Virus record (IMG/VR): IMGVR_UViG_3300020190_000007
Coordinates: 32,001-96,000 of that record
Reading direction: 5' to 3' (one strand)
From: a virus
DNA length: 64,000 bases
In this document: piece after piece, positions 2 through 23,178 of the stretch
Position numbering within the stretch: the stretch's first letter is position 1
Layout: every line of letters begins with the position of its first letter
The notes under the pieces: model-generated
Told to the model about the DNA's origin: nothing
What the model saw: only the letters and a program-made list of their open reading frames with translations
Database searches by the model: none
Translations under genes and position numbers: made by a program

Positions 2-3000
2 TGTAACAGAACTTGTAGGGGTTACGGATGGTGTTCTACTTGGCGTAACACTCGGTGTAACAGAACTTGTAGGGGTTACTGAAGGAGTAACACTCGGAGT
101 TACTGATGGTGTAACAGAACTTGTAGGTGTAACAGATGGTGTTCTACTTGGCGTAACACTCGGTGTAACAGAAGGTGTAACAGAACTTGTAGGTGTAACA
201 GATGGTGTAACACTTGGTGTTCTACTTGGCGTAACACTCGGTGTAACAGAACTTGTAGGAGTTACAGATGGTGTTCTACTTGGCGTAACACTCGGTGTAA
301 CAGAACTTGTAGGGGTTACGGATGGTGTAACAGATGGTGTAACTGATGGAGTAACTGAACTAGTTGGGGTGACGGATGGTGTTCTACTTGGTGTCACCGA
401 TGGAGTAACGCTTGATGTGGGTGTTAATGATGGAGTAACAGATGGTGTTCTTGACGGTGTGATGGAAGGTGTAACAGAACTAGTTGGTGTGATAGATGGT
501 GTAACACTTGGTGTAACCGAAGGTGTAACACTTGGTGTAACAGAACTTGTAGGTGTAACTGAAGGTGTTACGGATGGGGTAACACTTGGTGTAACAGAAC
601 TAGTTGGTGTGATAGATGGTGTAACACTTGGTGTTCTTGACGGTGTAACAGAACTTGTAGGTGTTACTGAAGGTGTTACTGAAGGTGTAACACTTGGTGT
701 GACAGAACTAGTAGGAGTTACTGATGGTGTAACTGAAGGGGTAACACTTGGTGTTCTACTTGGTGTAACAGAACTTGTAGGTGTAACTGAAGGTGTTACA
801 GATGGTGTAACACTTGGAGTTACTGAACTAGTAGGTGTAACACTTGGTGTTCTACTTGGTGTAACAGATGGTGTAACAGAACTTGTAGGTGTTACTGAAG
901 GTGTTACTGAAGGTGTAACACTTGGTGTGACAGACGGAGTTACCGATGGTGTAACTGAAGGTGTTATGCTCGGAGTTACGGAAGGTGTTACAGAACTTGT
1001 AGGTGTTACAGATGGTGTTCTACTTGGGGTAACGGATGGTGTAACAGATGGTGTAACAGATGGTGTGACACTTGGTGTTACCGATGGTGTTACCGATGGT
1101 GTAACACTAGATGTTGGTGTAACACTTGGTGTTCTTGATGGTGTGATTGACGGTGTTACCGAACTAGTAGCAGTAACTGAAGGTGTAACACTTGGAGTCA
1201 CGGATGGGGTTACTGAACTAGTTGGTGTAACGGAAGGTGTTCTTGACGGTGTGATAGATGGGGTTACACTCGATGTTGGTGTGATAGATGGAGTAACAGA
1301 TGGAGTAACAGATGGAGTTACTGAACTACTTGGTGTTACTGATGGTGTAACACTTGGTGTAACCGATGGAGTTACTGAACTAGTGGGGGTTACTGAAGGA
1401 GTTCTTGAAGGTGTAATAGAAGGTGTAACGCTTGATGTTGGTGTAACTGATGGGGTAACTGATGGGGTAACACTCGGAGTAATAGAACTAGTTGGTGTAA
1501 CGGATGGGGTAACTGATGGAGTTACTGATGGAGTTACTGAACTACTCGGTGTTACCGACGGAGTAACTGAAGGAGTAACACTTGGTGTTCTTGATGGTGT
1601 TACCGACGGAGTGATTGATGGGGTTACCGACGGAGTGATTGATGGGGTTACAGAAGATGTTGGTGTAACTGATGGTGTGACACTTGGCGTAACTGATGGT
1701 GTGACAGAACTTGTAGGAGTTACTGAAGGAGTTCTTGAAGGTGTAATAGAGGGTGTAACGCTTGATGTTATTGATGGTGTTACTGATGATGTGACACTCG
1801 GAGTAACCGAAGGTGTAACTGAACTGGTTGGTGTCACCGATGGTGTAATAGATGGGGTAACTGATGGAGTTACAGAAGGTGTAACTGATGGTGTAACACT
1901 CGGAGTTTTACTTGGTGTGATAGATGGTGTAACACTAGATGTTGGTGTAACTGATGGTGTAACAGATGGTGTAACACTTGGAGTTACAGAAGATGTTGGT
2001 GTCACCGATGGTGTAACACTTGGTGTAACTGAACTTGTTGGGGTAACAGATGGTGTCACTGATGGAGTGACTGACGGGGTTACCGAAGCGGTTACTGATG
2101 GTGTAACAGAAGGTGTTCTACTTGGTGTAATAGATGGTGTGACAGAACTAGTGGGTGTGATTGATGGTGTTATAGAGGGTGTTACCGAACTTGTTGGAGT
2201 TACAGATGGTGTTACGGATGGTGTTATTGATGGTGTTACAGAAGATGTCGGTGTAATTGATGGTGTGACACTCGGAGTTACAGATGGTGTTATAGATGGA
2301 GTAACGCTTGGTGTAACTGAAGGTGTAACAGATGGAGTTACAGAACTAGTAGGTGTAATTGATGGTGTAACCGAAGGTGTAACCGAAGGTGTTACGGAAC
2401 TTGTAGGTGTGACACTCGGAGTTACAGATGGTGTAACTGATGGTGTGACGCTCGGTGTAACAGATGGTGTTCTACTTGGTGTTATAGATGGGGTAACTGA
2501 AGATGTCGGCGTAACTGATGGTGTGACACTTGGAGTCACGGATGGAGTAACGGAACTTGTTGGAGTAACGGATGGTGTAACTGATGGTGTAACAGAACTA
2601 GTAGGGGTGATAGATGGTGTTACTGATGGAGTTACAGATGGGGTAACAGAACTGGTAGGTGTTACCGATGGTGTAACACTTGGCGTAACTGATGGTGTTT
2701 TACTTGGTGTAACAGATGGAGTTACAGATGGTGTGATACTCGGAGTGATTGACGGTGTTACCGAACTTGTTGGAGTAACAGATGGTGTTCTACTTGGTGT
2801 TACAGATGGTGTAACAGATGGTGTTACAGATGGGGTAACGGATGGGGTAACTGAAGGCGTTACGCTCGGGGTTACTGAACTTGTAGCGGTAACCGATGGT
2901 GTTATACTTGGAGTTACGGATGGGGTTACAGAACTTGTAGGTGTCACCGACGGAGTAACTGACGGTGTCACGCTTGGTGTAACTGATGGTGTAACACTTG

Positions 3001-6000
3001 GAGTCACTGATGGTGTTACAGATGGTGTAACACTTGGAGTTACTGAACTAGTAGGTGTAACCGATGGTGTTATACTTGGAGTTACGGATGGAGTTACAGA
3101 ACTTGTTGGAGTTACAGACGGAGTAACTGACGGTGTTACAGATGGTGTGATAGATGGTGTAACACTTGCGGTAACAGAAGGTGTTCTACTTGGTGTTATA
3201 GATGGTGTAACAGAACTAGTAGGTGTAACCGACGGAGTTACAGATGGTGTAACAGATGGTGTTACTGAACTAGTAGGTGTTATTGATGGTGTTATAGACG
3301 GTGTTACCGATGGAGTTACACTTGAAGTTGGAGTTACTGATGGCGTTACTGATGGTGTTACAGATGGTGTGACTGATGATGTTGGAGTGACTGAGGGTGT
3401 AACAGATGGTGTAACACTAGATGTAACTGATGGTGTGACACTCGGAGTAACTGAAGGGGTAACAGATGGAGTAATAGATGGAGTTACAGACGATGTTGGA
3501 GTAACACTCGGAGTTACAGACGGTGTTACCGATGGAGTAACTGAACTAGTGGGCGTTACCGATGGTGTGACACTAGGTGTAATCGATGAAGTAACTGATG
3601 GGGTTACAGAAGGGGTTACAGAAGGGGTTACAGAAGGGGTTACAGAAGGGGTTACGCTCGGTGTAACTGAAGATGTTGGCGTAACCGATGGTGTGGTACT
3701 TGGGGTAACTGATGGTGTAACTGACGATGTAACACTAGGTGTAACTGATGGTGTGACACTCGGAGTAACTGAAGGGGTAACACTTGGGGTTACTGAACTT
3801 GTTGGAGTCACCGATGGTGTTATACTTGGAGTTACGGATGGGGTTACGGATGATGTCGGTGTTACTGATGGGGTGATAGAAGGTGTGACAGATGGGGTTA
3901 CGGAACTAGTTGGTGTGACACTCGGAGTTACACTTGGGGTCACCGAGCTGGTTACTGACGGTGTTACAGAAGAAGTTACAGATGGTGTAACTGATGGTGT
4001 TATTGATGGTGTTACAGAACTAGTAGGTGTAACTGATGGGGTGATAGATGGGGTAACACTTGGCGTAACAGAACTAGTTGGTGTAATTGAAGGAGTTACT
4101 GAAGGAGTTACTGAAGGAGTTACTGATGGAGTTACTGAACTAGTAGGAGTGACAGAGGGTGTTACTGATGGAGTTACAGATGGGGTAACACTTGGTGTAA
4201 CAGAACTGGTGGGAGTGACAGAGGGCGTTACAGAGGGTGTTACTGATGGAGTTACTGATGGGGTAACACTTGGTGTAACAGAACTAGTAGGTGTAACGGA
4301 AGGTGTAACAGATGGTGTTACACTTGGTGTAACCGATGGTGTAACCGATGAAGTGGGAGTTACTGATGGTGTAACACTTGGTGTAACAGAACTAGTAGGT
4401 GTAACGGAAGGTGTAACACTAGCAGTTACTGAAGGTGTAACAGAACTAGTTGGGGTCACTGACGGAGTAACACTTGGAGTCACCGAAGGTGTAACAGAAC
4501 TAGTAGGAGTTACAGAGGGTGTTACTGATGGAGTTACGGATGGAGTTACAGATGAAGTAGGAGTTATTGATGGTGTAATAGATGGGGTAACACTTGGTGT
4601 AACAGAACTAGTGGGTGTAACGGAAGGTGTAACAGATGGTGTTACACTTGGTGTAATGGAACTAGTAGGAGTTACAGAGGGTGTTTCAGATGGTGTAACA
4701 GAAGGTGTAACAGATGGTGTAACACTTGATGTTGGTGTTACTGATGGTGTAACGCTTGGTGTAACGGACGGTGTAACTGATGATGTTGGTGTTACACTTG
4801 GTGTAACGGAAGGTGTAACGCTTGGTGTAATAGAACTCGTAGGAGTTACAGATGGGGTTATTGATGGTGTAACAGATGGGGTTACAGACGATGTGGGTGT
4901 GATAGAAGGGGTAACGCTCGCGGTCACCGATGGTGTAACTGAACTAGTGGGGGTTACTGATGGTGTAACACTCGGAGTTACTGAGGGTGTGACAGATGGG
5001 GTAACACTTGATGTAGGTGTTAGTGATGGTGTAATAGAAGGTGTAACACTTGGTGTAACAGATGGTGTGGTAGATGGGGTGACAGAACTTGTCGGTGTAA
5101 CACTTGGTGTAAGACTTGGGGTTACTGAAGGAGTAATCGATGATGTTGGTGTTACTGATGGAGTTACGGATGGTGTAACAGATGGTGTAACAGAACTTGT
5201 TGGGGTGATACTAGAAGTTACTGATGGTGTTACCGAGCTGGTTACTGACGGTGTTACAGATGGTGTCACGCTCGGTGTTACGGAAGGTGTCACAGAACTA
5301 GTTGGTGTAACACTTGGTGTAACAGAAGGTGTTACTGATGGCGTAACAGAGGATGTAGGGGTTACAGATGGTGTAACACTCGGAGTTACTGAAGGAGTAA
5401 TCGATGATGTTGGTGTAACACTCGGTGTAACACTTGGTGTTTCAGATGGTGTAACACTCGGTGTAACTGAACTTGTAGGTGTTACTGATGGTGTAACAGA
5501 TGGTGTAATAGACGGTGTTACCGAACTAGTGGGGGTTACTGATGGAGTTACGGATGGCGTAACAGATGGTGTAACTGATGATGTTGGTGTTATACTTGGT
5601 GTGACCGACGGTGTAACTGATGGAGTTACAGAACTAGTAGGTGTTATTGATGGTGTTATAGACGGTGTTATTGAACTAGTAGGTGTTACTGATGGTGTAA
5701 CAGACGGTGTAACAGACGGTGTTACGGAACTAGTAGGTGTAACAGATGGTGTAACGCTTGGTGTGACCGATGGTGTGACAGAACTAGTGGGAGTTACAGA
5801 AGGTGTAACTGACGGAGTGACCGATGGTGTAACAGAACTAGTAGGGGTCACCGATGGTGTTTCAGATGGTGTGACTGAACTAGTTGGTGTCACACTAGGA
5901 GTTACTGAAGGTGTTATACTTGGTGTCACAGAAGACGTTGGTGTAACGGAAGGTGTGATGCTTGGTGTAACAGACGGTGTTACTGAACTAGTAGGTGTAA

Positions 6001-7303
6001 CAGATGGTGTAACACTTGGTGTAACACTCGGAGTTACTGAAGGAGTAATCGATGATGTTGGTGTAACACTCGGTGTAACACTTGGTGTTTCAGATGGTGT
6101 AACACTCGGTGTAACTGAACTTGTAGGTGTTACTGATGGTGTAACAGATGGTGTGACTGAACTGGTTGGAGTTACTGATGGTGTAACAGACGGTGTAACA
6201 GACGGTGTAACAGAACTAGTTGGAGTCACAGAAGGTGTTACGCTAGGTGTTTCAGATGGGGTTACAGAACTAGTTGGTGTAACGGAAGGTGTAACACTTG
6301 GTGTAATAGATGGTGTAATAGAACTAGTGGGAGTCACAGAAGGTGTTACGCTAGGTGTTTCAGATGGTGTAACGGAACTAGTGGGAGTTACTGATGGTGT
6401 AACAGAAGGTGTTACCGATGGTGTTACGGAACTAGTGGGAGTTACAGATGGTGTTTCAGATGGTGTAACAGAAGGTGTAACGCTCGGAGTTATTGACGAT
6501 GTTGGAGTAATTGAGGGTGTAACACTTGGAGTTATTGAAGGAGTTACCGACGATGTTGGTGTTACAGATGGGGTAACACTTGGTGTTTCAGATGGTGTAA
6601 CACTTGGTGTAACTGAACTAGTCGGGGTTACAGAAGGTGTTTCAGATGGGGTAATAGATGGTGTAGCACTTGGTGTAACAGAACTAGTTGGTGTAACAGA
6701 TGGTGTTACACTCGGTGTAACCGAAGGTGTAACAGAAGATGTAGGAGTTACAGAAGGTGTAACACTTGGTGTAACCGATGGTGTAACTGAACTAGTAGGT
6801 GTTACTGATGGTGTTTCAGATGGTGTAACACTTGGTGTAACTGAACTAGTTGGAGTTACAGAAGGTGTTTCAGACGGGGTAATAGACGGTGTAACACTTG
6901 GTGTAACAGAACTAGTAGGTGTTACTGATGGTGTAACAGAGGGTGTTACACTTGGTGTAATGGAACTAGTAGGTGTTACAGATGGTGTAACAGAGGGTGT
7001 TACTGATGGTGTAACACTTGGTGTAACCGATGATGTTGGTGTTACTGATGGAGTTACTGATGGTGTAACACTTGGTGTTATTGAACTAGTAGGAGTTACA
7101 GAAGGTGTAAGTGATGGGGTGATGGAAGACGTGGGGGTTACTGATGGTGTTTTAGATGGTGTGATACTCGGAGTTACGGATGGTGTAACACTTGGTGTAA
7201 CTGAACTAGTGGGTGTAACACTTGGTGTTCTACTTGGTGTAACAGAAGGTGTTACTGATGGTGTTTGTGTTAATGTTGGTGTAGGTGTGGGTGAAGGAGT
7301 GGG
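2..7303 (-). repeat. Degenerate coding tandem repeat of 12-nt (TPSV) and 18-nt (TPTSSV) units, about 2430 codons
   Basis: Plus strand is (ggtgtaacagat)-like and (ggtgtaacagaacttgta)-like units with heavy third-position variation. Confidence 0.97.
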
Positions 7304-7498
7304 ACAAGGAATTTCAGCCACACAGGTTTTATCCAGTGATGGAAAATAAATTGAGTAAGTACCTAAATAATAGTTTGTTTCGTAATAATATGGCATTAGG
7401 ACGGAACCTAAATTTATGGTACCGCCAGTACAAGGATAAAATGTAATGTCACCGATTTCCTCATTAAAATTACCCGCGTTTATTTTTATTAATGCCAT
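2..7498 (-). CDS. Giant Ser/Thr/Pro/Val-rich mucin-like repeat protein, >=2499 aa, 3' end beyond the left edge; probable virion fibre/decoration protein
   Basis: ATG at 7498 reads [94 protein letters not shown]...; no stop down to position 2; same strand as the upstream structural genes; Ser alternates TCN/AGY on this strand. Missed by the ORF track because there is no stop in the window. Confidence 0.92.
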
Positions 7499-7588
7499 TT
7501 AAATCTAAAGTCTTATCTATATCTATTTTTACTATAAAAATATATTTATTTATTTGGGTATTGTCAACGTCTATTTTTACAGTTTTTA

Positions 7589-10500
7589 TCATGGACAATC
7601 AAAAATGGAACTACTTAATTCCTCATTAGTTGGTTCTGTAGGACAATGGTTGGCATCGATATAATATTGACCGAGGTTGAATCCAATATTTGGATGTTTA
7701 TCATATTTGTGTTTCATCAGAATTTTGTCACTGTTGTTTCCGTTAAAAACAACAACAAATTCATCATCTATTGGTGTATTGTCTAATTCAAAGTTTAGAT
7801 TGAAGTATAATCCTGTATCGCAATAATTTAAATCGACATCAATTACTTCTATGGTTTCACCATATTTGTTTATTAAATAATCTCCGTGATTGTATAATTC
7901 TTTCGGATGGTCGCAACAAGGTTCAATAAAATCTATTGGTTTTTTCTGTAATTCCTCAGGAAATCTGTCGTCAAAAAAGTAAACACTATTTGTTGGTGTC
8001 CCAAAATTTTCAATAATTCTATTTGTATAAACTCTTAGTTGTGTTGTTGGTAAAACTTCAAAAACTTCATAGGTGTTATTTTGGGTCAATCCCGTGATAA
8101 TACTTTTCTTTATTGATGCTAAACATTCAATATCCGTGATTTCAAGTTTTTGATAGTTGTACGTAAATGAATATCCTGATACAGGACCATTAACAATTTG
8201 TTGGTGACTATATTCTGTACATTGTTTATATGAAGCGGATAAAACATATTCCCCAACATTTAAATCACAAACACTTTTACCACTTATCGTACCACCACTA
8301 ATATAACTTTCAATATTACTATCGGTTGTTTGGTCATCAATGGTTAACCCACTATTAACCACCAAAACAATAGAGTCACATTTTAGCCCATAGTTAAAGT
8401 TTGATTTGTATTGTACTTTTGGTTGTATAGTATAACCCGTGTAATTGTCACAGTATGTTGCACCTGAAACAACTGAAATTGGTGAAGCGATTGTTCCTTG
8501 GTAACCAACAATACTGAATAACTCTACGTGACTCTTTCCTGATGGTGTTGGACATGGGTCATGTTCAATTTTGGGTTGTAGACCTTCTATTTTGAATTTT
8601 ACTTCTTTATTCGCAGCATCTACAATATTGAAATCTATTACATCATTTTCTGAAACACCAGTTAATTTGTATACACAATCACTAACTTTTTGAATGTGAA
8701 CATCCGCATTTTCATTTGTTCCACTCACACAGTTAGCATAAATGTTAAATGGCCATGTTGAACCTTGTTGAATTCCTGTTTTATACCCAATTACCTCAAA
8801 AAATACATCACTTACTAAAGTGCACCCACTATTTGAGTCACAGTAAACGGTATTATCAGTATAAACTTTAACACTGATTCCATGTGTATTTTTTGTAATT
8901 TTATAATCAGCATCAAATCGATAATCAAAATAGTCAACCACCGAACATTCGTTTGGTCCTAATTTTACGGATGAAAACTTAACTTTTTCGACACCATTTT
9001 CATCAGTGTATGTTGTGTATTTTATTAATGGTATTGTTTCTGAAAAATATGTTTGACCAGTGGTTCCCGTGAAAGCGGAATAGGGTTCATATCCCGCGCT
9101 ATTTCTTGTAATAGTTACGTCATCAATCAATACAGATAATGCCGATAACCATAATTCTTTAATTTTAGTAACATCAGGTTCAAGATAATCTTTATAATCA
9201 CATATTAAGGAAAGATTTACAGTATCACCACTTGTTACACCACTCGTACATCCTGTAAATGGTTGTGCGTCAAATAATTTTGCACTATTTGAAGTGTTAC
9301 TTGTTCCACTAACAATTACATACATGGAAGATGTTAGTCCTGTGTAATTAGCACCACCATAAACTGTTCCGTCAATTTCAATTACCGGATAATAAGTAAC
9401 ACCGGTAAGGTTTATTAAACCTCTGAAATTATTTTCTTCGCCTAAAATGTTTTCTAAATCTTCTTCGATTACGTTTTCAAAATCAGGGTATAATTCCTCG
9501 ATAAATTCTAATGGTTGGCAATCATATCTATATTGATATTTTGGTCTACCAAAAACGTTATTTTCAATTAAATTACCACCAGTCCATTGAGTGGTTGATG
9601 GTACTAATTGTTCTACTAATTGTGGCCAATATGGAGATAATTTATTTACAAATTCAGTGACATTTATTTGGTTATATGGTGTGAAACCTGTGGTTTGTGA
9701 AATATAATCTCTATAAACATCCTCTAACTGTATATAATTTTTATTGTAACGAATTTTGTTTGAATTAGTTACAAGACTATGAATAAATGTGTCTAAAAAT
9801 TCAGCAAAAGTTTTACCTGTTTGAGGTAATAAAGTATTTGTACCAAAACTTATTAATAATTCTCTACTTTGTCTAAATATATCATAATCTATACCTCGTG
9901 ATGGTGAGATATAAATTCCAATATTTTTTCTATTTAAAATTAATAAATAATCATCTTCAATTGGTTTTCCGTCTTTATTATCAACAGCAGACACCAATTC
10001 ATAACCTGTATCTAAACCCGGTAATGTTCTATATAAATCAAAATATTCTTCTCCGTATGTATAGTTTTTATTCTTTGTTTTAATTGTTTTAGTGTTACCC
10101 GTCAATATTGAGTTACTACTATCTAAAACAAGTGGAGAACGATGTGATAATGTAATATCGTACCATCCTGAACCTTTACCAAAGAAAATGTTTTCAGTTT
10201 CATTATATGCTCTTCTTGGTAGTCCAGTTTTTTCGTCTACGGGGTAACCCTCTCTATCAAATGTTGTTGATGCTGAGTAGTAAACTTTAGAGTATGTGTA
10301 ACCTGTGCTGTCAAAAGTTGCATAGGAATATCTTTTACTACCTTGAATCGCGTCGTATATATCTTGTTGTAAATTAAAACTAGACGGTATCGATGTGACT
10401 TTATAAATATACTCATCGATTCTAATTAAAGGTTCTGGTGCTCCTAAAAATTTCAAAAAGAAATCAATAGAAGATTTTGTTCCTTTTGATTTATAAATGT

Positions 10501-11833
10501 GTGCGAGATTTATTAATAATCTTCGATAAAACTCATATTCAGATTCAATTAAATTAGTGCCGGTTGACACACCGTCATAGTTTGATTGTAACCTTGAATA
10601 TAAAACATCATTTAAGCTATTCTCATCAAATAAATTTAATGTAGATAAACCTAAATTTTCTGATAAATTCTTTAAAAGTACATCGGGTAGATTATTAATA
10701 CCATCATAACTTACATTTCTCATTTGAGCTATGTTGTCTATATACTTCTTTACACTATCAAAACTTTGTCCGTATAGTTCAAATATACTTTCAGCCCTTT
10801 TATCTTCAGTATCAAATTCAAATAATTGTGGCGCAGCTAAAAATCTGACCATCAAATTAGATTTGTATCCATCTATTTCATCAGCAATGTCTTTTAATTT
10901 ACTAACGTATAAATCGAAATAAAACCCTGTTATTTCTATATTGTAACCATCTTCAGATATTGGCCAAGTTATTACCACATCAACCAAAGATGTTTTTGAA
11001 TTATCTTCAACATCTTTAGGTACTTTAAATGAAGAGGTATAAATTGGATTTGTGTCTCTATTTAAAAGTGATTCTTCTAAATCATCTAATCCTTCAAAAA
11101 ATTCTTCAACTAAACCATCATTTGGTCTTATTAATAAGTTTTCTGAATATGTTGTACCAGTAAATGGTTGTCCATATACTTTTAAGTAAATTCTGTTGTT
11201 TATATTTGGTTCAATATAATCTAAAATTGGATATGATGTGTTATTGGTAATAACAACATATTTTGTATATGACGAATAAAAATTTCTTAATTCGTTTTCA
11301 GTTTCTGGTTTAACCACAGAATTAGGTTCTATAAAAACTAAATTAAACGGATTAAATATTTTGCTTCTTTCAATGTAAAAAGTAGTGGTGTTGGTGCTAT
11401 CATTATATGTTATTCCACTAGCACTAAAATTAGAAACACCAATAGGGGTGTCTGATAAAATCGAAATTGCACCCGGAAACTTATTAATAATTCGAGTTAG
11501 TGAAACTAAAATTCTATCTGTTAATGAACCAAATAAAGATTTATCGGCATATTTTTTGTTACCCTTAAATCTTACTTCGTCAGTTCTTTTTTTTGAAGGT
11601 TTTACAGATGTTGTTTGAATACCTTCAACTTCCTTTAACGTATCTAATGTTAAAAATTGAGAGAATGGATTACTTGTAAAATTTTTAGAATCTTTATCAG
11701 GAATAGACTTATCAAGCGCAAATACGGTGTTAGTTAGTGCAGATGAACCATCGGTTATCTGTCTACCAACTAAGAAATCATTAAATGTTTCAGCTCCGCT
11801 TGACGCTTGACTAGGTACTTTTCTCCTTGCCAT
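7589..11833 (-). CDS. Baseplate wedge/tail protein (P2 gpI / T4 gp7-like core) with Cys-rich beta-rich C-terminal region
   Basis: Motif LPDVLLKNLSENLGL...RRLLINLAHIYKSKGTKSSIDFFL resembles gpI/gp7-like wedge proteins; lies downstream of the gp25-gp6 block. Confidence 0.65.
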   Translation of the reverse strand: MARRKVPSQASSGAETFNDFLVGRQITDGSSALTNTVFALDKSIPDKDSKNFTSNPFSQFLTLDTLKEVEGIQTTSVKPSKKRTDEVRFKGNKKYADKSLFGSLTDRILVSLTRIINKFPGAISILSDTPIGVSNFSASGITYNDSTNTTTFYIERSKIFNPFNLVFIEPNSVVKPETENELRNFYSSYTKYVVITNNTSYPILDYIEPNINNRIYLKVYGQPFTGTTYSENLLIRPNDGLVEEFFEGLDDLEESLLNRDTNPIYTSSFKVPKDVEDNSKTSLVDVVITWPISEDGYNIEITGFYFDLYVSKLKDIADEIDGYKSNLMVRFLAAPQLFEFDTEDKRAESIFELYGQSFDSVKKYIDNIAQMRNVSYDGINNLPDVLLKNLSENLGLSTLNLFDENSLNDVLYSRLQSNYDGVSTGTNLIESEYEFYRRLLINLAHIYKSKGTKSSIDFFLKFLGAPEPLIRIDEYIYKVTSIPSSFNLQQDIYDAIQGSKRYSYATFDSTGYTYSKVYYSASTTFDREGYPVDEKTGLPRRAYNETENIFFGKGSGWYDITLSHRSPLVLDSSNSILTGNTKTIKTKNKNYTYGEEYFDLYRTLPGLDTGYELVSAVDNKDGKPIEDDYLLILNRKNIGIYISPSRGIDYDIFRQSRELLISFGTNTLLPQTGKTFAEFLDTFIHSLVTNSNKIRYNKNYIQLEDVYRDYISQTTGFTPYNQINVTEFVNKLSPYWPQLVEQLVPSTTQWTGGNLIENNVFGRPKYQYRYDCQPLEFIEELYPDFENVIEEDLENILGEENNFRGLINLTGVTYYPVIEIDGTVYGGANYTGLTSSMYVIVSGTSNTSNSAKLFDAQPFTGCTSGVTSGDTVNLSLICDYKDYLEPDVTKIKELWLSALSVLIDDVTITRNSAGYEPYSAFTGTTGQTYFSETIPLIKYTTYTDENGVEKVKFSSVKLGPNECSVVDYFDYRFDADYKITKNTHGISVKVYTDNTVYCDSNSGCTLVSDVFFEVIGYKTGIQQGSTWPFNIYANCVSGTNENADVHIQKVSDCVYKLTGVSENDVIDFNIVDAANKEVKFKIEGLQPKIEHDPCPTPSGKSHVELFSIVGYQGTIASPISVVSGATYCDNYTGYTIQPKVQYKSNFNYGLKCDSIVLVVNSGLTIDDQTTDSNIESYISGGTISGKSVCDLNVGEYVLSASYKQCTEYSHQQIVNGPVSGYSFTYNYQKLEITDIECLASIKKSIITGLTQNNTYEVFEVLPTTQLRVYTNRIIENFGTPTNSVYFFDDRFPEELQKKPIDFIEPCCDHPKELYNHGDYLINKYGETIEVIDVDLNYCDTGLYFNLNFELDNTPIDDEFVVVFNGNNSDKILMKHKYDKHPNIGFNLGQYYIDANHCPTEPTNEELSSSIFDCP

Positions 11834-12750
11834 TATTCTGTGATAGTATCAAAGTTTAAGGTTTCGTCTATATCACCCCTCTCCTCACGAATTTCATATA
11901 ATGTCTCATTAAATTCGTCTTTAACCTCGTAAAGATTGTATTGTCTATAGATGTTATTATTATTATCATAAATGGTATAGATACCTTGTGAAACCGCTTT
12001 GCTTTGATTACCATAAAGGGCGTGTGCTATGGTTGAAGCGTCGTGTTCAACCATTTCTACTTCAATTGTGGTAGGATTTAAAAATGTATTTGTTAATATA
12101 ATTTTTTGTGATGGTAAACCAATAAATGGAACCGTGTTTGGTTTATTTGTTGGTGCTGAAGATGGTGTTACTGTTAAAAACATTAAATTAGTTGCTTGTT
12201 CACTATACTGATATCTAATAGCTTTTTGTGATGTACTTGTTAAATTTGAAACAATAGGTGAGCAATAGAACGAAGATGTTACAATTCTATAAAAATTTGG
12301 AATTTTTTTATTGTCAGATGAATTAATATACTCAATTCTATACCCAACAAGTCCTTGTGGTGTAAATTTATTTCTATCATCAGCGGGAACATTGGATAAG
12401 TCAATAATCAATCCTCTAACTGAAGGTAGAGATGCTAAAATTCCACAATCGGTAATCGATGTTCTTATTTGTTTTGGTCTTATATGAAGTGTATACACGC
12501 CTAAATCCGCAAAATCATCCGCGGTTAATTTTAAATTGTATAATCCACCTAAGATTTCAACATTAGGTGCTGAAGTATCATCCGTAGTATTCGAATTGTG
12601 ATAAACAGGGGTTAATACTTCCGCTGAACTTAATTTCTTAAGAGTAACAGTCGAAGTGCTATTTCTATCCGCAACATAATGAAAATAAATTTCAACGTCT
12701 TCGGGTGACACATCTGATGGTCTAATTATACCGTAACTACCTACTGCCAT
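11833..12750 (-). CDS. Putative virion structural protein (baseplate region)
   Basis: 305-aa ORF, TAATG coupling to the next gene, TATTTAT motif upstream. Confidence 0.6.
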   Translation of the reverse strand: MAVGSYGIIRPSDVSPEDVEIYFHYVADRNSTSTVTLKKLSSAEVLTPVYHNSNTTDDTSAPNVEILGGLYNLKLTADDFADLGVYTLHIRPKQIRTSITDCGILASLPSVRGLIIDLSNVPADDRNKFTPQGLVGYRIEYINSSDNKKIPNFYRIVTSSFYCSPIVSNLTSTSQKAIRYQYSEQATNLMFLTVTPSSAPTNKPNTVPFIGLPSQKIILTNTFLNPTTIEVEMVEHDASTIAHALYGNQSKAVSQGIYTIYDNNNNIYRQYNLYEVKDEFNETLYEIREERGDIDETLNFDTITE

Positions 12751-12761
12751 GTTTTTTTATA

Positions 12762-12768
12762 ATAAATA
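12762..12768 (-). promoter_or_regulatory. Putative late promoter motif TATTTAT
   Basis: 11 nt before ATG at 12750. Confidence 0.5.
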
Positions 12769-12774
12769 TGAAAA

Positions 12775-13941
12775 TTATTGTTTTCTAATATTAAAATATC
12801 CGTTTCCGTAAATTGATAATTCACCTGTGTTGTCAATTTCAGATAATCGTAATGTTTTTTCCATTACACCTTGTTTTCCTCTTTCAACAAAAATGTCAGA
12901 ATAGATTACTGGTTCATCAATAAATCCTAAGAAATGTTCATTTCTTGTAATAACCTTATTGATGACTTCTTCTTTTGTAAATCCTGATGTTGTACCGGTA
13001 ATTGTGGTAATTCCATCTTCGAAATCTTGATAATATAAATTATCAATTGTGTATGCACTGTAAGTCACACCATTTGTTACTCCTGTAGTTACACCTGAGT
13101 ATATATTTGAACCGTATAATTTTAATTCACTAATTTTACTTTTACCAATTGCTGCGTATGTAAATGTGGTATAACCTGTGTTGGTTCCATTATAGTCTAA
13201 ATCGTTTAGATAATTTTGACTTTGACCAGATATGTTGGTGTATGGTATTGTGAACCCGGAGAATGTCCCTAATGGGTTAGAGACAGTGGTATTTGAAGGT
13301 ACTTGTACTTTCTTTTTAGTTTCAAACTGACTCCATGGTGTGTTGATTGAAATTGATATGGTTGTTTCGCCGGTGGATGAATATGTTTTTGTTGCGGTAA
13401 TTCCAGTTGTTGATAGAATACTTGTAGTTCCATCTCCCCAACTGACAGTAAAATCGATATAATGTATTTCAGAAACTTTACTCGTGTCCACCGTATTGTA
13501 AACCTGAACTGTGTTACCGGTCTGAGTATAAGAAAAGTTACAAATTTGTTCAACTTGTTCAAGTTCCCCATCAAAACCAACCATTACACCCATTTCGTCA
13601 ACGTGTGTTTCTAAAAATATCGGTAACATATGTTCACCATACGCCTCCCCTTTTGTAATATTGTTCCAACCATATAGTTCTAAAGTTAAATCACAACCAT
13701 TGTCTCCGTAAGAGTTGGTTGGTATGGTGGTTCCTGTCCACATGTAGTAACCATCACCGACGGTACCGCCGCTTACATTATATACTATTAAACCTTCTAA
13801 CGGGTCAAGATATTTAGAATTTGACCAAGATATTAAACTACCCAAACTATTGTACCAATATGGACCATCGATTGAATACAATTTGACATTAAGAATGTTT
13901 TTCCTTAGTATCTCAAATTTTGTTGGTGATTTAATATCCAT
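12775..13941 (-). CDS. Putative structural protein with PKD/Ig-like domain
   Basis: PKD-like signature DFTVSWGDGTTS...KTYSSTG; Thr/Gly-rich; within the baseplate gene block. Confidence 0.55.
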   Translation of the reverse strand: MDIKSPTKFEILRKNILNVKLYSIDGPYWYNSLGSLISWSNSKYLDPLEGLIVYNVSGGTVGDGYYMWTGTTIPTNSYGDNGCDLTLELYGWNNITKGEAYGEHMLPIFLETHVDEMGVMVGFDGELEQVEQICNFSYTQTGNTVQVYNTVDTSKVSEIHYIDFTVSWGDGTTSILSTTGITATKTYSSTGETTISISINTPWSQFETKKKVQVPSNTTVSNPLGTFSGFTIPYTNISGQSQNYLNDLDYNGTNTGYTTFTYAAIGKSKISELKLYGSNIYSGVTTGVTNGVTYSAYTIDNLYYQDFEDGITTITGTTSGFTKEEVINKVITRNEHFLGFIDEPVIYSDIFVERGKQGVMEKTLRLSEIDNTGELSIYGNGYFNIRKQ

Positions 13942-14771
13942 TATTGTTTTCTTTCAAAAAAATTTATTGGTAAATTATAGGTACCTTTTCTTGAACCTAA
14001 AGAGCCATCGTATGCATATACTACAAATGAATAATTTGTTCTATCTACAATTACTTTATAGTAAACATCTTGCTCTTCAATATAAGGTGTTGTTGCATTC
14101 ACATTTTTTGATTTATTTACAAAATCTATTACACTTCCGTCTTTAGCGTTGTAATATTTTGCGGTCATATAAAAAGTGTTTCCTGTAATATTAGTTTCTT
14201 CGAATGGGGTGTCGTCGGAAAACCAAAAAAAGTACATATTTTCCGTGTTTCTATAATTAGACCCCGTAAAAACAGGCACGAAAACGTAATCATTTAATGG
14301 TAATGTAGCGCCTGATGGTGTGCCTGTATAAAATATTTTTTCACCAAGAGGTAATGATAAATTTTTTGCAAAAACCAATCTTCTATTTGTTTGATTTGGT
14401 GACGCGTCATGGTTGGTTTTGTAAAATTCTAACCTGAAGAAACTTTCTGTTGATTGTTTTAACATTTTTGAATTTTCTCTAAATGTTATTCCCACATCTT
14501 CATAGTTTTGTGAATAGTTACCCGAGGAATTTAGAAAATAAAAATTATATAATATGTCGCTTTGAATGAACGTAATGTCCGAATCAGAAACTACACTATA
14601 GGGTTCATGAATATACCTTACGGTTTCATAATTTTCAGTTGGATTAATAATTTCATATAAAATCTCTTGCTCCATTTGCTGAGCATTATCAGTCCAACCC
14701 AAATCTGTTTGAAACATTTGGTTTGGTTCAATTATAATTGATTGGTCATTATTTTTAACAAGAATTTTCAT
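13941..14771 (-). CDS. Putative structural protein
   Basis: 276-aa ORF translationally coupled within the baseplate gene block. Confidence 0.55.
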   Translation of the reverse strand: MKILVKNNDQSIIIEPNQMFQTDLGWTDNAQQMEQEILYEIINPTENYETVRYIHEPYSVVSDSDITFIQSDILYNFYFLNSSGNYSQNYEDVGITFRENSKMLKQSTESFFRLEFYKTNHDASPNQTNRRLVFAKNLSLPLGEKIFYTGTPSGATLPLNDYVFVPVFTGSNYRNTENMYFFWFSDDTPFEETNITGNTFYMTAKYYNAKDGSVIDFVNKSKNVNATTPYIEEQDVYYKVIVDRTNYSFVVYAYDGSLGSRKGTYNLPINFFERKQ

Positions 14772-14772
14772 A

Positions 14773-16533
14773 TTAACATTTAAATTTATCTACATTCTTA
14801 ACTTCATCCTGTTTATTCCTGTGAATATTTTCATTTCGCAAATAAAAATCAATGTCGCTTTTTACGTAATGTAAATTATTAATAAAAGGAAAGTTGGTAC
14901 CAAAACCATCTGGGTCAATAAATCCATGGTCATATAAATCTCTCCATTTCCATAAGGACTCATCTTCAAAATATTTTGAATTCTGTGGTAATCCATACAC
15001 TTGATTTGTTTTTGAAGTCTCAATGTATGGGGACAATTGTCTCAGTTTTACTCTATGGTGTGGTTTATAATAAAGACCATACATATTTGTTACTGAACCA
15101 CCTGAAAAAGCCACAGTTGTACCCGTTTGTCCATAATCAAACACAAATAAAGGATTAGAAAATCTATGATATGATTCACTTATAATTCTTTCATTTAATT
15201 CTGAATGATTGTATTCAACAAAGGCACCGTGTAAAACTGTACCAACAGGTAAATCTATACCTGTTGTAAAATTATAGGTTGTTGCACTAATCGTTCTTGA
15301 GAAACCACTTGTTAATATAGACGTTTCAGTAGTTCCTGTACCATTAAAATGCTCGTCAACCCACGTGTCATGAAAATTAAACTTCCACCCAACTTTAGGT
15401 GGATATTCAAAATAACCATTTCTATTGGCTAAAATGGTACTGACATAAACTTCAGTTGGTAAATAACCTAAGTTATTGGTTAATCCCGTGAGAACAAATG
15501 GTTCTTTAAAATCATAAATTAATGATTCCATCATATTTCTCTCAACTAAAACATCGGAAACACCAGCGCTATTTTCTAAAAGTAATTTTCTTTCGTTTTC
15601 CCAAATGGATGATTCAAATCCAATTTTGTCTAATATGTAATCTTCTCTCTCTGTTAATGTTTTGTGTTCGTGAACGTAATAAATTGAAGTGGAACCTGTA
15701 ATATTATTTATATTAAGACATCTTTTACCAAAAACCACCGTGGATAGTGTTGAACCAGATGGTAATTCGGATTTAGATATTTCTAAAACATATTTTTCAG
15801 AATTATATATTGAATCACCGACACTTATAATTGTAAAAGTTTTACCTGTGACATTCACCGCACTGTTAAAACTTCCACCACTTAATATTATAAATTCACC
15901 TGATGACATTCCGTGTTCAACAGGGCTTGTTAACTTATATGTGTTACCAGTACTTTCAACTCGAAAAGGTATTCCATCACCTGATGTGAAACTAAAATAA
16001 GTTCCACCACTTAATGAATATTTCATTGGATAATCACTGTCTTGACCATATACATATGAAAGGTATATGTTCCAATTATGATATGGCGCGTCAATACTTG
16101 AAATTGTGGTATGTTCGGACGCTCCTGAATAGGTAAAAACAGGAGTAATTGTTGTTAAAGATGAGATGGTTTGTATTGTATTTACTTGTCTTAAAACGTC
16201 TTTTCTTAAAAAAGCAAATTCTTGATAGGGTATAAATCCATCAAAATTATTATCACTACCGTCACCGACTAAATACAATCTTTTTAATAATGGATTATAT
16301 TCAGATGAACCACTATAAAGATTTCTAAAAACCATTTTAAGTTTACCATGAATTTTATAGCTATTACTTTCGTTCCTTTCTTTATTAAAGAGCTCCGCGT
16401 TACTTAGAATAATTGTTCTGTCACCTTCTCTTAAAAGATTCTCAGTTTCCTCTAACCCAACACGAATTGTTTGGTCTTCATTGATTGAACCAAAAAATTT
16501 TTTAGATGGTAATATAATTCTTTTTTTATCCAT
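14773..16533 (-). CDS. Putative structural protein
   Basis: 586-aa ORF coupled to neighbours; beta-rich insert YKLTSPVEHGMSSGEFIILSG. Confidence 0.55.
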   Translation of the reverse strand: MDKKRIILPSKKFFGSINEDQTIRVGLEETENLLREGDRTIILSNAELFNKERNESNSYKIHGKLKMVFRNLYSGSSEYNPLLKRLYLVGDGSDNNFDGFIPYQEFAFLRKDVLRQVNTIQTISSLTTITPVFTYSGASEHTTISSIDAPYHNWNIYLSYVYGQDSDYPMKYSLSGGTYFSFTSGDGIPFRVESTGNTYKLTSPVEHGMSSGEFIILSGGSFNSAVNVTGKTFTIISVGDSIYNSEKYVLEISKSELPSGSTLSTVVFGKRCLNINNITGSTSIYYVHEHKTLTEREDYILDKIGFESSIWENERKLLLENSAGVSDVLVERNMMESLIYDFKEPFVLTGLTNNLGYLPTEVYVSTILANRNGYFEYPPKVGWKFNFHDTWVDEHFNGTGTTETSILTSGFSRTISATTYNFTTGIDLPVGTVLHGAFVEYNHSELNERIISESYHRFSNPLFVFDYGQTGTTVAFSGGSVTNMYGLYYKPHHRVKLRQLSPYIETSKTNQVYGLPQNSKYFEDESLWKWRDLYDHGFIDPDGFGTNFPFINNLHYVKSDIDFYLRNENIHRNKQDEVKNVDKFKC

Positions 16534-19500
16534 TATTCTTGAGATGGGAACGCACCTTTTGGTCCAAATAATTTTATAAATTTATCAAGAGCGGTTGCCC
16601 CAGGTCTTAATCCAAAATAAAATAAGAATGGTGTTGATAATATTTGTTTATTACCGTTGTAATTGACTTGTGTTGGTTTTAATATAAAATCAACATCAAA
16701 ATTCCAAGGTTTGGATGTCCATCCACCTACTTCACCGACTCTAATCCATAAAGTACCCGCGTATGCCGTTTCGGTATCTCCTGATGTAATATGTAAAAAT
16801 GTAAACCCTTCTTCTTGATTATCAAAATTAAGATGATAGTCAGCCGTATCTTCTTCATCAAAATCAGCAAGTGCAACGTTCGCGCCGGAAATTGTAAACG
16901 TATCACCTGAATATGTTTTAGTCATTGGAAATAAAACATAATTATATGTCGAATCTCCCGTAAATGCGTAATTATGGGACATACCCTGAAGATTTTGAGC
17001 AACAACACTTGTATAATCCCACGACTGATTAATACCTTCACCAAATCCGGGACCTTTTTTATCCCAATAAAAAAATGGTACCACCTGTGATGATTCTGTT
17101 AATCGTCCTGGCTCGTTCAAACAAACCCTAACTCTATAACCATCATCATCATCTAAAACAAAATTTATAGGTAAAGGTCCGTTTGTAGTACCGCTTTGTG
17201 ATTTGAAAATATTTGGATAATCTTCGGGGTCCAAAATTACTGGACTGTATTGACCATAATACCTATTTTGTAAATCGAACTCATCGATACCGACTTCGTT
17301 ATTAATTGAAATTAATTGTAGAACATCACCATTCATTATTTGGTTGTTTGTAAAATAAGGATAAGTAGTAAAACCATTGTTTTGGAAAAAACTTTTATAC
17401 GTGTAATTTGGGTTAGTATCCATTCGATAATTAATGTATAGACCTAACATTTCCTTAAAATTTTGAAATGACGTTGAACCAATACTTCTAACCACGGAAC
17501 AATTAGGGTCTAAAGATGGGTCTACACAAATTTCTTTTATAAATTCATCTCTTGGACCTAAGTCCATGACCGTGGTTGGGTATCTTAGTGTTGTAAATTG
17601 AGTTCCAACATCTTTTGTTATTTGAAATTGTGATGTTGTATTATTCCATTTTGTTGACCTATAATAAAACCTTTTTACAGCACTTTTTGATGATGCCTCA
17701 TCAACTTTATAGTATACTAAGTCTTTACAATAATTTGTACCCCTAAAATTTAAATCTAAAATTTCCTCATTATCCCATCTTACTTTAGCTTTGAATGGGA
17801 ACATATATAAAGAACCTGCTAACCAATTTTCAAAAAAAGAATATTTAGCGAGTCCTTCACAAAATACTTTGTTAACCAATTTTCTTCTACAGTATTCATT
17901 AATTAATTTAAATTGTGTTTCCCTATTAAAATCGTTGGCTGCGGGAATTATTGTATATATACCAAATCTGAATTCAGAAAAACCTGTTCGAGTGTCACAT
18001 CTACCACAAGGATTTAAACCACTTTGGTTTACGTAAGCAACCTGACCTACTATTATTTTATTTAAACTAATACAATTGGTACCTGGATTTAAAATAACTT
18101 GAGAGGGGTCACTATAATTGTCTGCAACATCTGTTGCACAATAAGTTGCCGGTACAGAAACCGTATTGTCGTAAATAGTATTATTAGATAAACAACCTTC
18201 GGGTAAAGACGTTGTATCCATCGCGGTTGCTGCTGTAACTCCTACTGGATGTCCACTATCATAAATTTCGTAAGTAAATCCCGACCAAACAAAATCCTCA
18301 ATAACCCCACTTGAATTATAACGATATGGTATATTAGTACTTTCTATTCCTTTATATCCTGTTGTTGCCCCCACAGAATATGTACCTAATGTGAATGAAG
18401 TTGTTATGCCTGTGGTGATATTGGCATTTAGATAATTAATATCGGATGTTTGAGCATTTCCATGCGGACTATATGAAATTATTTTAATGAAATAAGTTCT
18501 ACCCGTGGCCAAACCATTTAAATAATTTATATATAATTGGGTTGGGGATTGTCCATAGGTATATCCGGTGTAATTATATATCGTTAGACCTGAGGAAGGT
18601 GTTTCCGTTAAAATAAATTCATTTGTTCCATTTATTGGGTCGGCAATAAAAATATCTGTAACAGTTTGGTCACACGTACCCGTTACTACCGGTACACCGT
18701 CTCCGCCAGCATATGACATTGACCCGTCTCTTGCACAAATTCCTGTTACCGATGACCCACCGGAGGGTATCGATTGAGATTGAATTGAGTTGTTAGTACA
18801 ATCTCTCCAAGTGTAAGTGGTTGTACCAACACTTGGTGGCGGTAAATTGTATGTTGTACAGTTAACTAAAAATGTCAACTCATCCCTAACCGCGTAACCA
18901 TCGACAACTTTTTCATAAAGAACGGAGGGGTCACTAGTGGTATCAACAGATTGATTAAAAACTTCAATTTCATCGCACGACTGACATTCTGGATAAATCA
19001 CTAAACTAAGGTGAACGGTGCCCAATTGTTGTAAAAATTCAATAATATCATCGAGGAATTGAAATCTACCGAAGCCAAATACTGTACTACCAAACACCCT
19101 TATCCTAAAATACAATATATCATATAACCATTGAAAAGGTCTAATCAATATTTGCATTGCCCCAATAAACGCGGTGTATATTACTTTTTCAAAAGCATTT
19201 ATAATAATTGCTAAAAGAATTGAAAAATTAAATTGTTTATATGCGTAATTTGTGGGTGGGGTAAGAACACTTGATTCACAATCATCTTCTTCTTTAGGTG
19301 CAATATCCTTTATTCCAAGAAACGAAGACGGTGAAATAGTCCCTAATGGACCTTCAATATGTGAACTTATATACGATGTTACCGCGTAAACTTTATTATA
19401 TGTGAATCTATAAAAATAATCTTGGGGGTAATAACTACCATACGTTTGATTGAATATTATCGATGTGTTTTTTGCACTAGTTGGATAATCGTTCCAATCA

Positions 19501-22575: not shown

Positions 22576-22576
22576 A

Positions 22577-23029
22577 TTATATATTAATAATTACAAAATC
22601 GGACGAAACAAAAGGTTCATTATTTATGTCATAGTCAATTCGAACTTTTGCAGTATAGGGTTTTGTTGAAAAATCAGAGACTCTAAACAATCTTGAATCC
22701 TCATCTTCTTGTGGACTAATAGGTTCTTCAGGTTCTTGGTCAGCCGGGGTTACTCTGATAGATTTTATTTCTAAATTTGGGATATATTTTTTTACTGATG
22801 TTCTAATTTCATCCTCTATTTGTCCCCACGTAACAGCGTCGTTTGGTTCAAAAATAAATTCAATTAATTTAGTTCCAAAATCGGGTAAATAATATCTCGT
22901 ACCCTTTCTTGTTAATAATAAGTGAATTAAGTTTGCACGAATCTCCCTTTCAGGGGTTTCGGTCATAACCAAAAAATCACCCTTAGGACTAATTCTGAAT
23001 GGAAAATCTATACCATATGTAATCGCCAT
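22577..23029 (-). CDS. Baseplate protein gp25 / gpW-like
   Basis: MAITYGIDFPF...IRANLIHLLLTRKGTRYYLPDFGT...IFEP. Start moved from 23128 to ATG 23029 because the extension overlaps a terminator and the promoter motif. Confidence 0.88.
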   Translation of the reverse strand: MAITYGIDFPFRISPKGDFLVMTETPEREIRANLIHLLLTRKGTRYYLPDFGTKLIEFIFEPNDAVTWGQIEDEIRTSVKKYIPNLEIKSIRVTPADQEPEEPISPQEDEDSRLFRVSDFSTKPYTAKVRIDYDINNEPFVSSDFVIINI

Positions 23030-23033
23030 ACTA

Positions 23034-23067
23034 ATAAATATAACTAAACAACAAATACTAATAAATA
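23034..23067 (-). promoter_or_regulatory. Two tandem copies of the TATTTAT motif (TATTTATTAGTAT direct repeat)
   Basis: atactaataaata at 23028-23040 and 23055-23067 on the plus strand, upstream of gp25. Confidence 0.55.
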
Positions 23068-23070
23068 AAA

Positions 23071-23092
23071 AATCCCAACCTAAGTTGGGATT
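23071..23092 (-). terminator. Intrinsic terminator after nrdA
   Basis: AATCCCAAC-4nt-GTTGGGATT hairpin followed by a T run on the minus strand. Confidence 0.8.
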
Positions 23093-23178
23093 ATATATTG
23101 TTTGATTTTTTTGCTCTTGTATAATCAAACAAAGTAGATGTATTGTTAATTATAAAATGTCAATGGAGCCACCTACAG

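Follow-up and report, generated by a model that had tools for sequence, protein, structure and literature searches.

A giant Thr-Pro repeat protein in the baseplate and fibre block of a freshwater jumbo phage, a candidate glycosylated distal fibre

The window analyzed here is a 64,000-nucleotide (nt) stretch of viral DNA, bases 32001-96000 of the 170,860-bp linear IMG/VR record IMGVR_UViG_3300020190_000007 (G000; 55% complete according to CheckV), and it begins inside the gene of a giant protein dominated by a Thr-Pro repeat. An open reading frame (ORF) on the minus strand, open at the window edge, fills window positions 2-7498 (2,499 amino acids [aa] within the window) and goes 1,323 bases past the edge to a stop at genome position 30676 (full record; L003:10676-19498, minus). 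The full protein has 2,940 aa, a mass of 289 kDa, and a pI of 8.2. It begins with a 65-aa domain conserved among related phages, continues as a 2,527-residue stalk, and ends in Cys-rich domains. We give about an even chance to the reading in which this protein is a modular, flexible distal fibre attached to the phage tail, with its Thr-Pro stalk glycosylated by phage-encoded glycosyltransferases (GTs) of the GT60 type.

Architecture, coding strand, and age of the repeat gene

The N-terminal domain (N-domain; residues 1-65, window 7304..7498, minus strand) is nonrepetitive and contains three Cys residues (C23, C59, and C65). The main stalk occupies residues 66-2592 on the same strand and is composed to ~98% of Thr, Pro, Ser, Val, and Ile; its in-window part (residues 66-2499) lies at window 2..7303. 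Left of the window, also on the minus strand, follow a middle domain with six Cys (residues 2594-2667), a second, 120-aa stalk of TPSV/TPSR units (residues 2668-2788), and a C-terminal domain with 16 Cys (C-domain; residues 2789-2940). An earlier interpretation of the window, made from its letters alone (the sequence-only reading), had described about 2430 residues of Thr, Pro, Ser, Val, and Ile. The repeat nature of the region holds, while its length needed correction: the stalk has 2,527 residues, and the protein does not end in the repeat, two Cys-rich globular domains and a second stalk being read beyond the edge when the contig was extended leftward.

The stalk contains 298 TPSV, 101 TPTSSV, and 53 TPSI units. 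In the commonest super-unit, one TPTSSV precedes three TPSV (18 aa), in agreement with the 54-nt and 108-nt periods reported by Tandem Repeats Finder. Thr and Ser together make up 1,391 and Pro 561 of the 2,527 residues, so that Pro, Thr, and Ser prevail in the long tandem repeats, as in mucin-like (PTS-domain) proteins. The repeat region has a GC content of 44-46% and a strong GC skew, compared to 29-36% GC in the rest of the window. Units with a charged residue are regionally distributed: Glu-containing TPSE units are confined to stalk residues 210-938, and Arg-containing TPSR units occur almost only within residues 1438-2560, where they recur regularly, about every 18-36 residues, toward the C-terminal end. 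A regional spread of this kind is typical of arrays evolving through local duplication.

On the plus strand, the repeat is mirrored by an ORF of 2,448 aa (window 3..7349; genome 31667-39346) that spans the repeat only and is not a gene. Codon usage, silent Ser codon switching, and the presence of three globular domains in frame confirm, at the level of sequence, that the minus strand codes and that the plus-strand ORF only mirrors the repeat. For Thr, Pro, Val, and Arg, the stalk prefers the same codons (ACA, CCA, GTT, and AGA) as 14 neighbouring genes, and the neighbouring genes are all on the minus strand. Ser in the PSV context is encoded by TCN (245 codons) or AGY (94 codons), a switch that is silent on the minus strand and exchanges Asp/Glu for Leu on the plus strand. 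The minus frame passes through the three nonrepeat domains, while the plus frame covers nothing but repeat. The sequence-only reading had already deduced the coding strand from Ser TCN/AGT switching, and the codon usage and in-frame domains now confirm it.

The DNA of the repeat is highly scrambled. A set of 348 exact TPSV units uses 91 different 12-mers, with an entropy of 5.65 bits compared to the 6.07 bits expected with independent codon choice, and neighbouring TPSV units are no more alike than random pairs (identity, 0.731 versus 0.741). Likewise, the arrays of orthologous genes in related phages (see below) have no common segment of at least 100 nt at 85% or higher identity and are no longer collinear. 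These observations suggest a stalk selected at the peptide level with near-random codon choice, in agreement with the earlier view of the array as an old, selected repeat.

Repeat genes of this type disrupt short-read assembly, and the mirror ORFs that they generate may be miscalled by annotation pipelines. Here the gene itself is confirmed to be real, and the strongest argument from its sequence is the one shared frame: N-, middle, and C-domains are in a single frame across 7.6 kb of repeat in G000 and also share a frame in the relatives G001 and G004. A more restricted objection is that only the array length, and perhaps its continuity, is a short-read metagenome artefact and that the true protein is much shorter. 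Indeed, the array of the relative G002 holds a 20-N gap (L012:19149-19168) and an apparent frameshift (~L012:5827-5966) that splits a ~5,300-aa protein into 4,688 and 638 aa, which is probably an assembly error in the repeat, and the contig of the relative G003 stops inside the array. Within the G000 gene, 61 distinct 101-mers recur, and the longest exact repeat is 138 nt. However, self-alignments of the array at shifted registers are only ~69% identical in DNA, and with so few recurring 101-mers and no longer exact repeat, reads of 100-150 nt are unique across most of the array. Furthermore, four independent assemblies (G000, G001, G002, and G004) give stalks of ~2,000-4,700 residues and the partial G003 gives at least 1,000, with the N-, middle, and C-domains in frame in three of those four assemblies. 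We therefore regard a much shorter protein as highly improbable.

A conserved anchor with a swappable remainder

Relatives were retrieved from IMG/VR with a degenerate DNA pattern for YYQCCDG, a motif of the C-domain, and then by searches with the 1,414-aa neighbour encoded directly upstream of the giant gene (window 7589..11833, minus). An IMG/VR search with a single C-domain sequence gave no matches, and in the GenBank phage collection the fibre block had no relatives at the DNA or protein level. In every related contig, the gene right after a 1,412- to 1,419-aa protein begins with the same N-domain, and the size of its product varies widely. The slot gene encodes 224 aa in L032 and 609 aa in L031, both without a stalk; 2,737 aa with the domains in frame in G001; 4,688 aa followed by the frameshift and a further 638 aa (~5,300 aa in total) in G002; and at least 1,802 aa in G003, where the contig ends in the repeat. 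In G004 (IMGVR_UViG_3300027816_000051; 288-kb contig, 92% complete, no N), it is an intact gene of 5,472 aa (G004:C1:107949-124364; L115/L116).

The G004 orthologue keeps the same N-, middle, 16-Cys, and C-terminal domains, and its stalk of ~4,700 residues comprises 748 TPTN units plus TPTL, TPTK, and TPTV (45% Thr, 14% Asn). As G004 uses TPTN in place of TPSV, the conserved feature of the stalk is Thr-Pro at a period of four with a hydroxyl-rich third position rather than the exact tetrapeptide. G004 also encodes, at another locus (G004:C1:52194-53117; L117), a second, 308-aa protein in which a diverged N-domain copy is followed by TPSI/TPSV linkers.

Identity to the orthologues drops along the protein, from 83-86% in the N-domain to 47% in the middle domain and 29-41% in the C-domain, with the flanking genes at 78% (upstream, 1,414 aa) and 85-90% (downstream, 716 aa). 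The N-domain is also present in more distant proteins of 214-821 aa (47-74% identical), where it precedes other, unrelated domains that are either Thr/Pro linked or linker free. As the same slot holds N-domain proteins of very different length and content, the comparison supports the view that the N-domain behaves as a conserved anchor and the remainder as a swappable distal part. The 65-aa anchor proposed earlier thus proves to be what related phages conserve in a gene slot whose other contents are swapped. Paralogues of this domain within the G000 record, which had also been envisaged, did not emerge: its 55%-complete fragment contains no second N-domain gene like that of G004, and when the three globular domains were compared with the 170-kb record by tblastn, only marginal matches appeared, to a 2,021-aa gene (E = 0.025) and a 405-aa gene (E = 0.058). 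The former match aligns the 6-Cys middle domain with an unannotated ORF (window 32789-38854, minus; ~36512-36661) at 31% identity over 55 aa. For the 405-aa protein, a profile comparison with the C-domain family aligned linkers only, leaving module sharing with that gene conjectural.

Tail-fibre and receptor-binding genes of phages, such as those of T4 gp12, gp37, and the fibritin whiskers, typically combine a conserved N-terminal attachment module with an exchangeable distal part. The giant gene is like them in its position behind baseplate wedge genes, in its conserved N-terminal 65 aa, in a remainder that is replaced or resized, and in identity that falls toward the C terminus. Gp25-like and gp6-like wedge genes head a co-oriented block in which the giant gene is the last large one, with sheath and hub genes nearby, and the block order (wedge genes, five further genes, the 1,414-aa gene, and the giant gene) is the same in relatives. 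The 1,414-aa protein, which always directly precedes the slot gene and has no Pfam, PHROG, or PDB sequence match, is a candidate attachment partner. In contrast to known fibres, the giant protein has no coiled-coil, beta-helix, or collagen-like shaft and instead carries a Thr-Pro tetrapeptide array that reaches 2,000-4,700 residues among the relatives, and its Cys-rich end domains have no known fold.

The end domains were compared at the levels of sequence and predicted structure. The C-domain family comprises 14 representatives among 1.8 billion proteins, with an invariant YYQCCDG-type core; its members are always C-terminal and preceded by TPS(V/R) linkers. An AlphaFold2 model of the C-domain (pLDDT, 91.4; pTM, 0.82) is all beta, apparently with two sandwich-like halves. 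Its best matches were weak in Foldseek searches of the PDB (E = 0.45) and in VIA-align (Z = 3.7), and the best match in BFVD (E = 0.015) was an uncharacterized phage protein; no match reached an E value of 0.001 or lower in PDB or BFVD. The N-domain is modeled as a six-strand beta sandwich (pLDDT, 70), and its best structural matches (Z = 5.0) were generic YEATS/Ig-like sandwiches. None of the N-, middle, and C-domains matched Pfam or PHROGs, and neither a C-terminal domain of the type IX secretion system type nor any other Pfam family was found at an E value of 0.1 or lower, except for a chance 14-bit match. Thus, of the distal adhesin that the sequence-only reading had placed beyond the window edge, a globular 6-Cys domain and a confidently folding 16-Cys domain are indeed present, while the designation as an adhesin finds no fold or family match.

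The protein could alternatively act outside the virion, as a soluble or cell-associated late product that is released at lysis (as matrix, decoy, or aggregation control) or that coats the infected cell. No structural-protein family was matched, the slot is dispensable in size (224 aa in one relative), and the gene has its own promoter-like site (TTGACA-17-TATATT; window 7539..7567, minus), located ~40 nt upstream of the ATG with 11 of 12 consensus matches. This site is a consensus match only, and shuffled sequences average 1.8 such sites in the scanned region. However, the gene is co-oriented at the end of the baseplate/fibre block, phage fibre and receptor-binding genes usually show just this pairing of a conserved N-terminal module with a distal part that is swapped, and by inspection the N-terminal sequence has no signal-peptide-like hydrophobic stretch, so that secretory passage as in mucins is not indicated. 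We consider a role outside the virion distinctly unlikely and, from the conserved anchor and gene order, infer attachment to the virion and a binding function at the distal end.

Candidate glycosylation and physical reach of the stalk

Outside the window, Pfam matches outline a ten-gene sugar cluster on the minus strand (genome 151269-160811; L022:3269-12811). It contains an NAD-dependent epimerase/dehydratase, a DegT aminotransferase, two family 2 glycosyltransferases (GT2), an FkbM methyltransferase, a GDSL-like protein, an unannotated 344-aa gene, a second methyltransferase, and two PF11397 proteins, and this content suggests synthesis of a methylated amino-deoxy sugar. A second group of GT2, FkbM, and epimerase genes is located at genome 1498-3979 and a further GT2 gene at genome 103723-104499, with at least five GT2-type matches in the G000 genome as a whole. 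The two PF11397 proteins were detected with E values of 1e-70 and 5e-49 (239 and 168 bits, compared to a curated cutoff of 21). These paralogues are 40% identical to each other, both contain QLDSHHRF with its DxH motif, and by inspection their N termini show no signal peptide or membrane segment; for one of them, a search of the PDB gave no sequence match. We take PF11397 to be the family listed as GT60 in CAZy. Families GT27 and GT60 have in common polypeptide Ser/Thr O-glycosylation and the DxH motif (PMC7185993), and in Trypanosoma cruzi, pp-alpha-GlcNAcT starts mucin glycans by adding alpha-GlcNAc onto Thr (PMC3769586).

The glycosyltransferases that would be expected for a glycosylated stalk are thus encoded in the genome, as GT2 enzymes, sugar-nucleotide enzymes, and two PF11397/GT60-type proteins with the DxH motif. 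This makes the earlier suggestion of a possibly glycosylated protein plausible, and the attached sugar is a prediction from gene content. Neither prolyl 4-hydroxylase (PF13640) nor the GT1 family (PF00534) had a match in the 55%-complete record, and as no prolyl hydroxylase was found, Thr/Ser is a likelier acceptor than hydroxyproline. No PF11397 match was obtained in G001 to G003, which are 14-28% fragments, with a search whose positive control also gave none. In the relative G003, roughly twelve short genes in one orientation form a further glycan-synthesis island (L014:321-9580), with genes for UDP-GlcNAc 2-epimerase, GT2, a WavE-like protein, and two FkbM methyltransferases, and with what looks from its N-terminal sequence alone like an NAD-binding epimerase gene.

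The PF11397-like enzyme has 179 relatives in IMG/VR and four among GenBank phages (43-47% identity), namely the Xanthomonas jumbo phages XacN1 and Xoo-sp13 and two Stenotrophomonas jumbo phages. Co-occurrence with Thr-Pro tracts was assessed with a DNA pattern for TPxx four times running, with the reversed pattern as the control. The pattern was present in all 11 records with PF11397-like genes, namely, G000 (200 matches), XacN1 (19), Xoo-sp13 (12), and G004 to G011 (1-74 each), and the reversed pattern had 0 matches in all 11. In contrast, it was found in none of six other large phages (T4, phiKZ, P-SSM2, Tenacibaculum phage PTm1, RSL1, and phage G), in which tblastn also detected no homologue of the enzyme. 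We regard this co-occurrence as a lead, not a proof. In XacN1, ORF334 is 45% identical to the phage enzyme described here, and at least two glycoproteins are present in XacN1 virions, with ORF328 and ORF334 proposed as their makers (PMC5852040). A hypothetical 746-aa protein of the same phage, ORF236 (L030:5621-7861; AP018399.1 129620-131860), ends in a TPSV/TPDV/TPSL repeat. This combination of a TPSV-type repeat, a GT60-like enzyme, and reported virion glycoproteins makes XacN1 a possible experimental model.

Pro/Thr (PT) linkers of bacterial carbohydrate-active enzymes, such as glycoside hydrolases, join modules and are tens of residues long. The giant stalk resembles them in composition and in beads-on-a-string layout, and three proteins encoded behind it (591, 230, and 405 aa) look exactly so. 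However, its length exceeds theirs ~25-100 times, and several relatives retain a stalk on that scale. This resemblance raises the alternative of a virion fibre with a bare, unglycosylated entropic tether, in effect an oversized Pro/Thr linker, in which case the glycosyltransferases would serve, for example, DNA hypermodification or changes in host surface polysaccharide. Short Thr/Pro linkers do join domains in neighbouring genes and relatives, and phage glycosyltransferases can indeed also modify DNA (Pyle et al. 2024, as cited in PMC12619734). On the other hand, PF11397/GT60 is, as far as documented, a polypeptide-directed family, and both the enzyme and TPxx tracts occur in 11 of 11 records compared to 0 of 6 controls. 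XacN1 virions contain glycoproteins, and the stalk offers 1,391 Ser/Thr hydroxyls. Overall, we consider a bare tether unlikely.

With 0.25 nm per residue, the 2,527-residue stalk would have a contour length of ~630 nm; a polyproline-II helix would measure ~780 nm, and the fully stretched chain ~910 nm. In a worm-like chain model, the root-mean-square (r.m.s.) span would be ~30-40 nm for a bare chain (persistence length, 0.5-1 nm) and ~90-125 nm if the chain were stiffened like glycosylated mucin (persistence length, 5-10 nm). The 600-750 nm given by the sequence-only reading for an extended chain is therefore reasonable as a contour length, but as a reach it is an upper bound, the modeled r.m.s. 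span being ~30-125 nm. Its comparison with a tail of ~100 nm, which the chain was said to exceed several times, is tentative, as it rests on a 653-aa ORF without a family match.

The glycosylated distal fibre could work as follows. The conserved N-domain would fasten the protein to the tail or baseplate fibre apparatus, probably via the invariant 1,414-aa neighbour; the Thr-Pro-Ser-Val stalk would act as a long, flexible, nonglobular tether; and the two small Cys-rich beta domains at its far end would serve as a binding head that can be exchanged. Together with the shorter Thr/Pro linkers encoded by the next four genes, the stalk would be the likeliest acceptor for the cytoplasmic GT60-type polypeptide glycosyltransferases, and added sugars would make it a stiffer, hydrated, mucin-like thread. 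The arrangement recalls mucin glycosylation by GT60 enzymes in protists such as T. cruzi (PMC3769586, PMC7185993), with long Thr/Pro-rich tandem repeats and two DxH PF11397 enzymes in one phage genome. The protist system, however, works in the Golgi on secreted, glycosylphosphatidylinositol-anchored proteins, while the phage enzymes and substrate apparently have no signal peptides and any modification would be cytoplasmic. The giant protein may thus be regarded as a functional analogue of mucins, not a member. In mycobacteriophages, capsid and tail-tube proteins are glycosylated (Freeman et al. 2023, as cited in PMC12619734). They and XacN1 are precedents for phage-encoded glycosyltransferases and for glycosylated virion proteins (PMC12619734, PMC5852040). 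The mycobacteriophage sugars, however, sit on short C-terminal tails of capsid and tail-tube subunits and involve other GT families, and no protein region this long is reported in those phages.

Several observations weigh against the glycosylated fibre. The phage and its clade are known here from gene sequences alone, and the exact array length is uncertain in a metagenome assembly with a gap and frameshift in one relative. A stalkless 224-aa protein fills the slot in another relative, making the stalk dispensable for virion building. The end domains have no match to a known fibre, adhesin, or lectin family or fold, and a protein synthesized in a reducing cytoplasm would not be expected to have 16 Cys in 150 aa. 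These Cys residues may bind metal or become oxidized once the cell has lysed; the Erv1 sulfhydryl oxidase family (PF04777) had no match in the 55%-complete record in a search without a positive control, and the one thioredoxin gene in the record is uninformative. The sugar cluster lies ~120 kb from the giant gene, so that linkage lends no support, and the XacN1 enzyme homologue adjoins a carbamoyltransferase near replication genes; both points, like DNA modification by other phage glycosyltransferases, would also suit a bare tether. Finally, the co-occurrence test is small, its controls were hand-picked, three positives have only 1-5 matches, and the positives are perhaps related.

A more far-reaching version of this proposal, which we put forward tentatively and with some doubt, is that a freshwater jumbo phage clade makes its own mucins. 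These would be tail-anchored Thr-Pro threads of 2,000-4,700 residues with disulfide-rich heads, O-glycosylated in the cytoplasm by phage GT60-type enzymes with phage-made sugars and acting as a "fishing line" of near-micrometre contour length. With it, the phage could catch scarce or gliding Bacteroidota hosts over a larger radius. In the literature searched, we found no description of giant Thr/Pro phage proteins or of phage GT60 enzymes. If the fibre reading holds, tailed phages can build appendages of extended, probably glycosylated low-complexity polypeptide in place of folded trimeric shafts, made with a glycosylation start enzyme so far studied in protists. This would widen the range of phage adsorption devices, offer in bacteria and their viruses a cytoplasmic model of mucin-type glycosylation, and explain why a single repeat gene takes up 3-6% of the 300-kb genomes of these abundant lake phages.

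Phage identity and genes flanking the slot

G000 derives from a myovirus, with wedge genes, a baseplate hub gene, and a 951-aa sheath gene interleaved with genes for ribonucleotide reductase, DnaB, UvsX, single-stranded DNA-binding protein, and an exonuclease. It encodes ribosomal protein bS21, and its full genome is estimated at ~310 kb from the 55% completeness. Freshwater phages encoding bS21 have genomes of 293-331 kb with 31-33.7% GC and predicted Bacteroidetes hosts, based on one Flavobacterium spacer match and gene taxonomy (Chen et al. 2022, PMC9723584). G000 resembles these phages in bS21, GC content, and estimated size and, by its gene content, is a bS21-encoding freshwater jumbo myovirus. 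In the searchable text of PMC9723584, "tail fiber" and "glycos" occur 0 times, and all four uses of "repeat" refer to CRISPR arrays.

The baseplate wedge genes that head the block, encoding a gp6/Baseplate_J-like protein of 610 aa and a gp25-like protein of 183 aa, lie at window 20743..23128 on the minus strand (PHROG 6/219 and 261/43; PF04865). Between them and the 1,414-aa gene are five unannotated genes of 305, 388, 276, 586, and 1,385 aa (window 11833..20690, minus), whose order and similar sizes are kept in L031 and L032. No family was matched by this five-gene block, and the 1,385-aa protein has no PDB sequence match. The 653-aa ORF that the sequence-only reading took for a tape measure (window 44043-46004, minus) had no PHROG or Pfam match; it adjoins the baseplate-hub gene, a position compatible with a tape-measure role.

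Just left of the window, behind the giant gene, four minus-strand genes (591, 230, 116, and 405 aa; L003:6554-10634, genome 26554-30634) encode Cys-rich modules and Thr/Pro tracts. Clear PT/TPSV linkers are present in the 591-, 230-, and 405-aa proteins. The modules of these three proteins recur in differently arranged genes of relatives; the 405-aa module, for example, is found inside proteins of 1,303 and 763 aa. A layout of this kind marks a host-recognition cassette whose attachment module is fixed, and the conserved 716-aa gene closes it.

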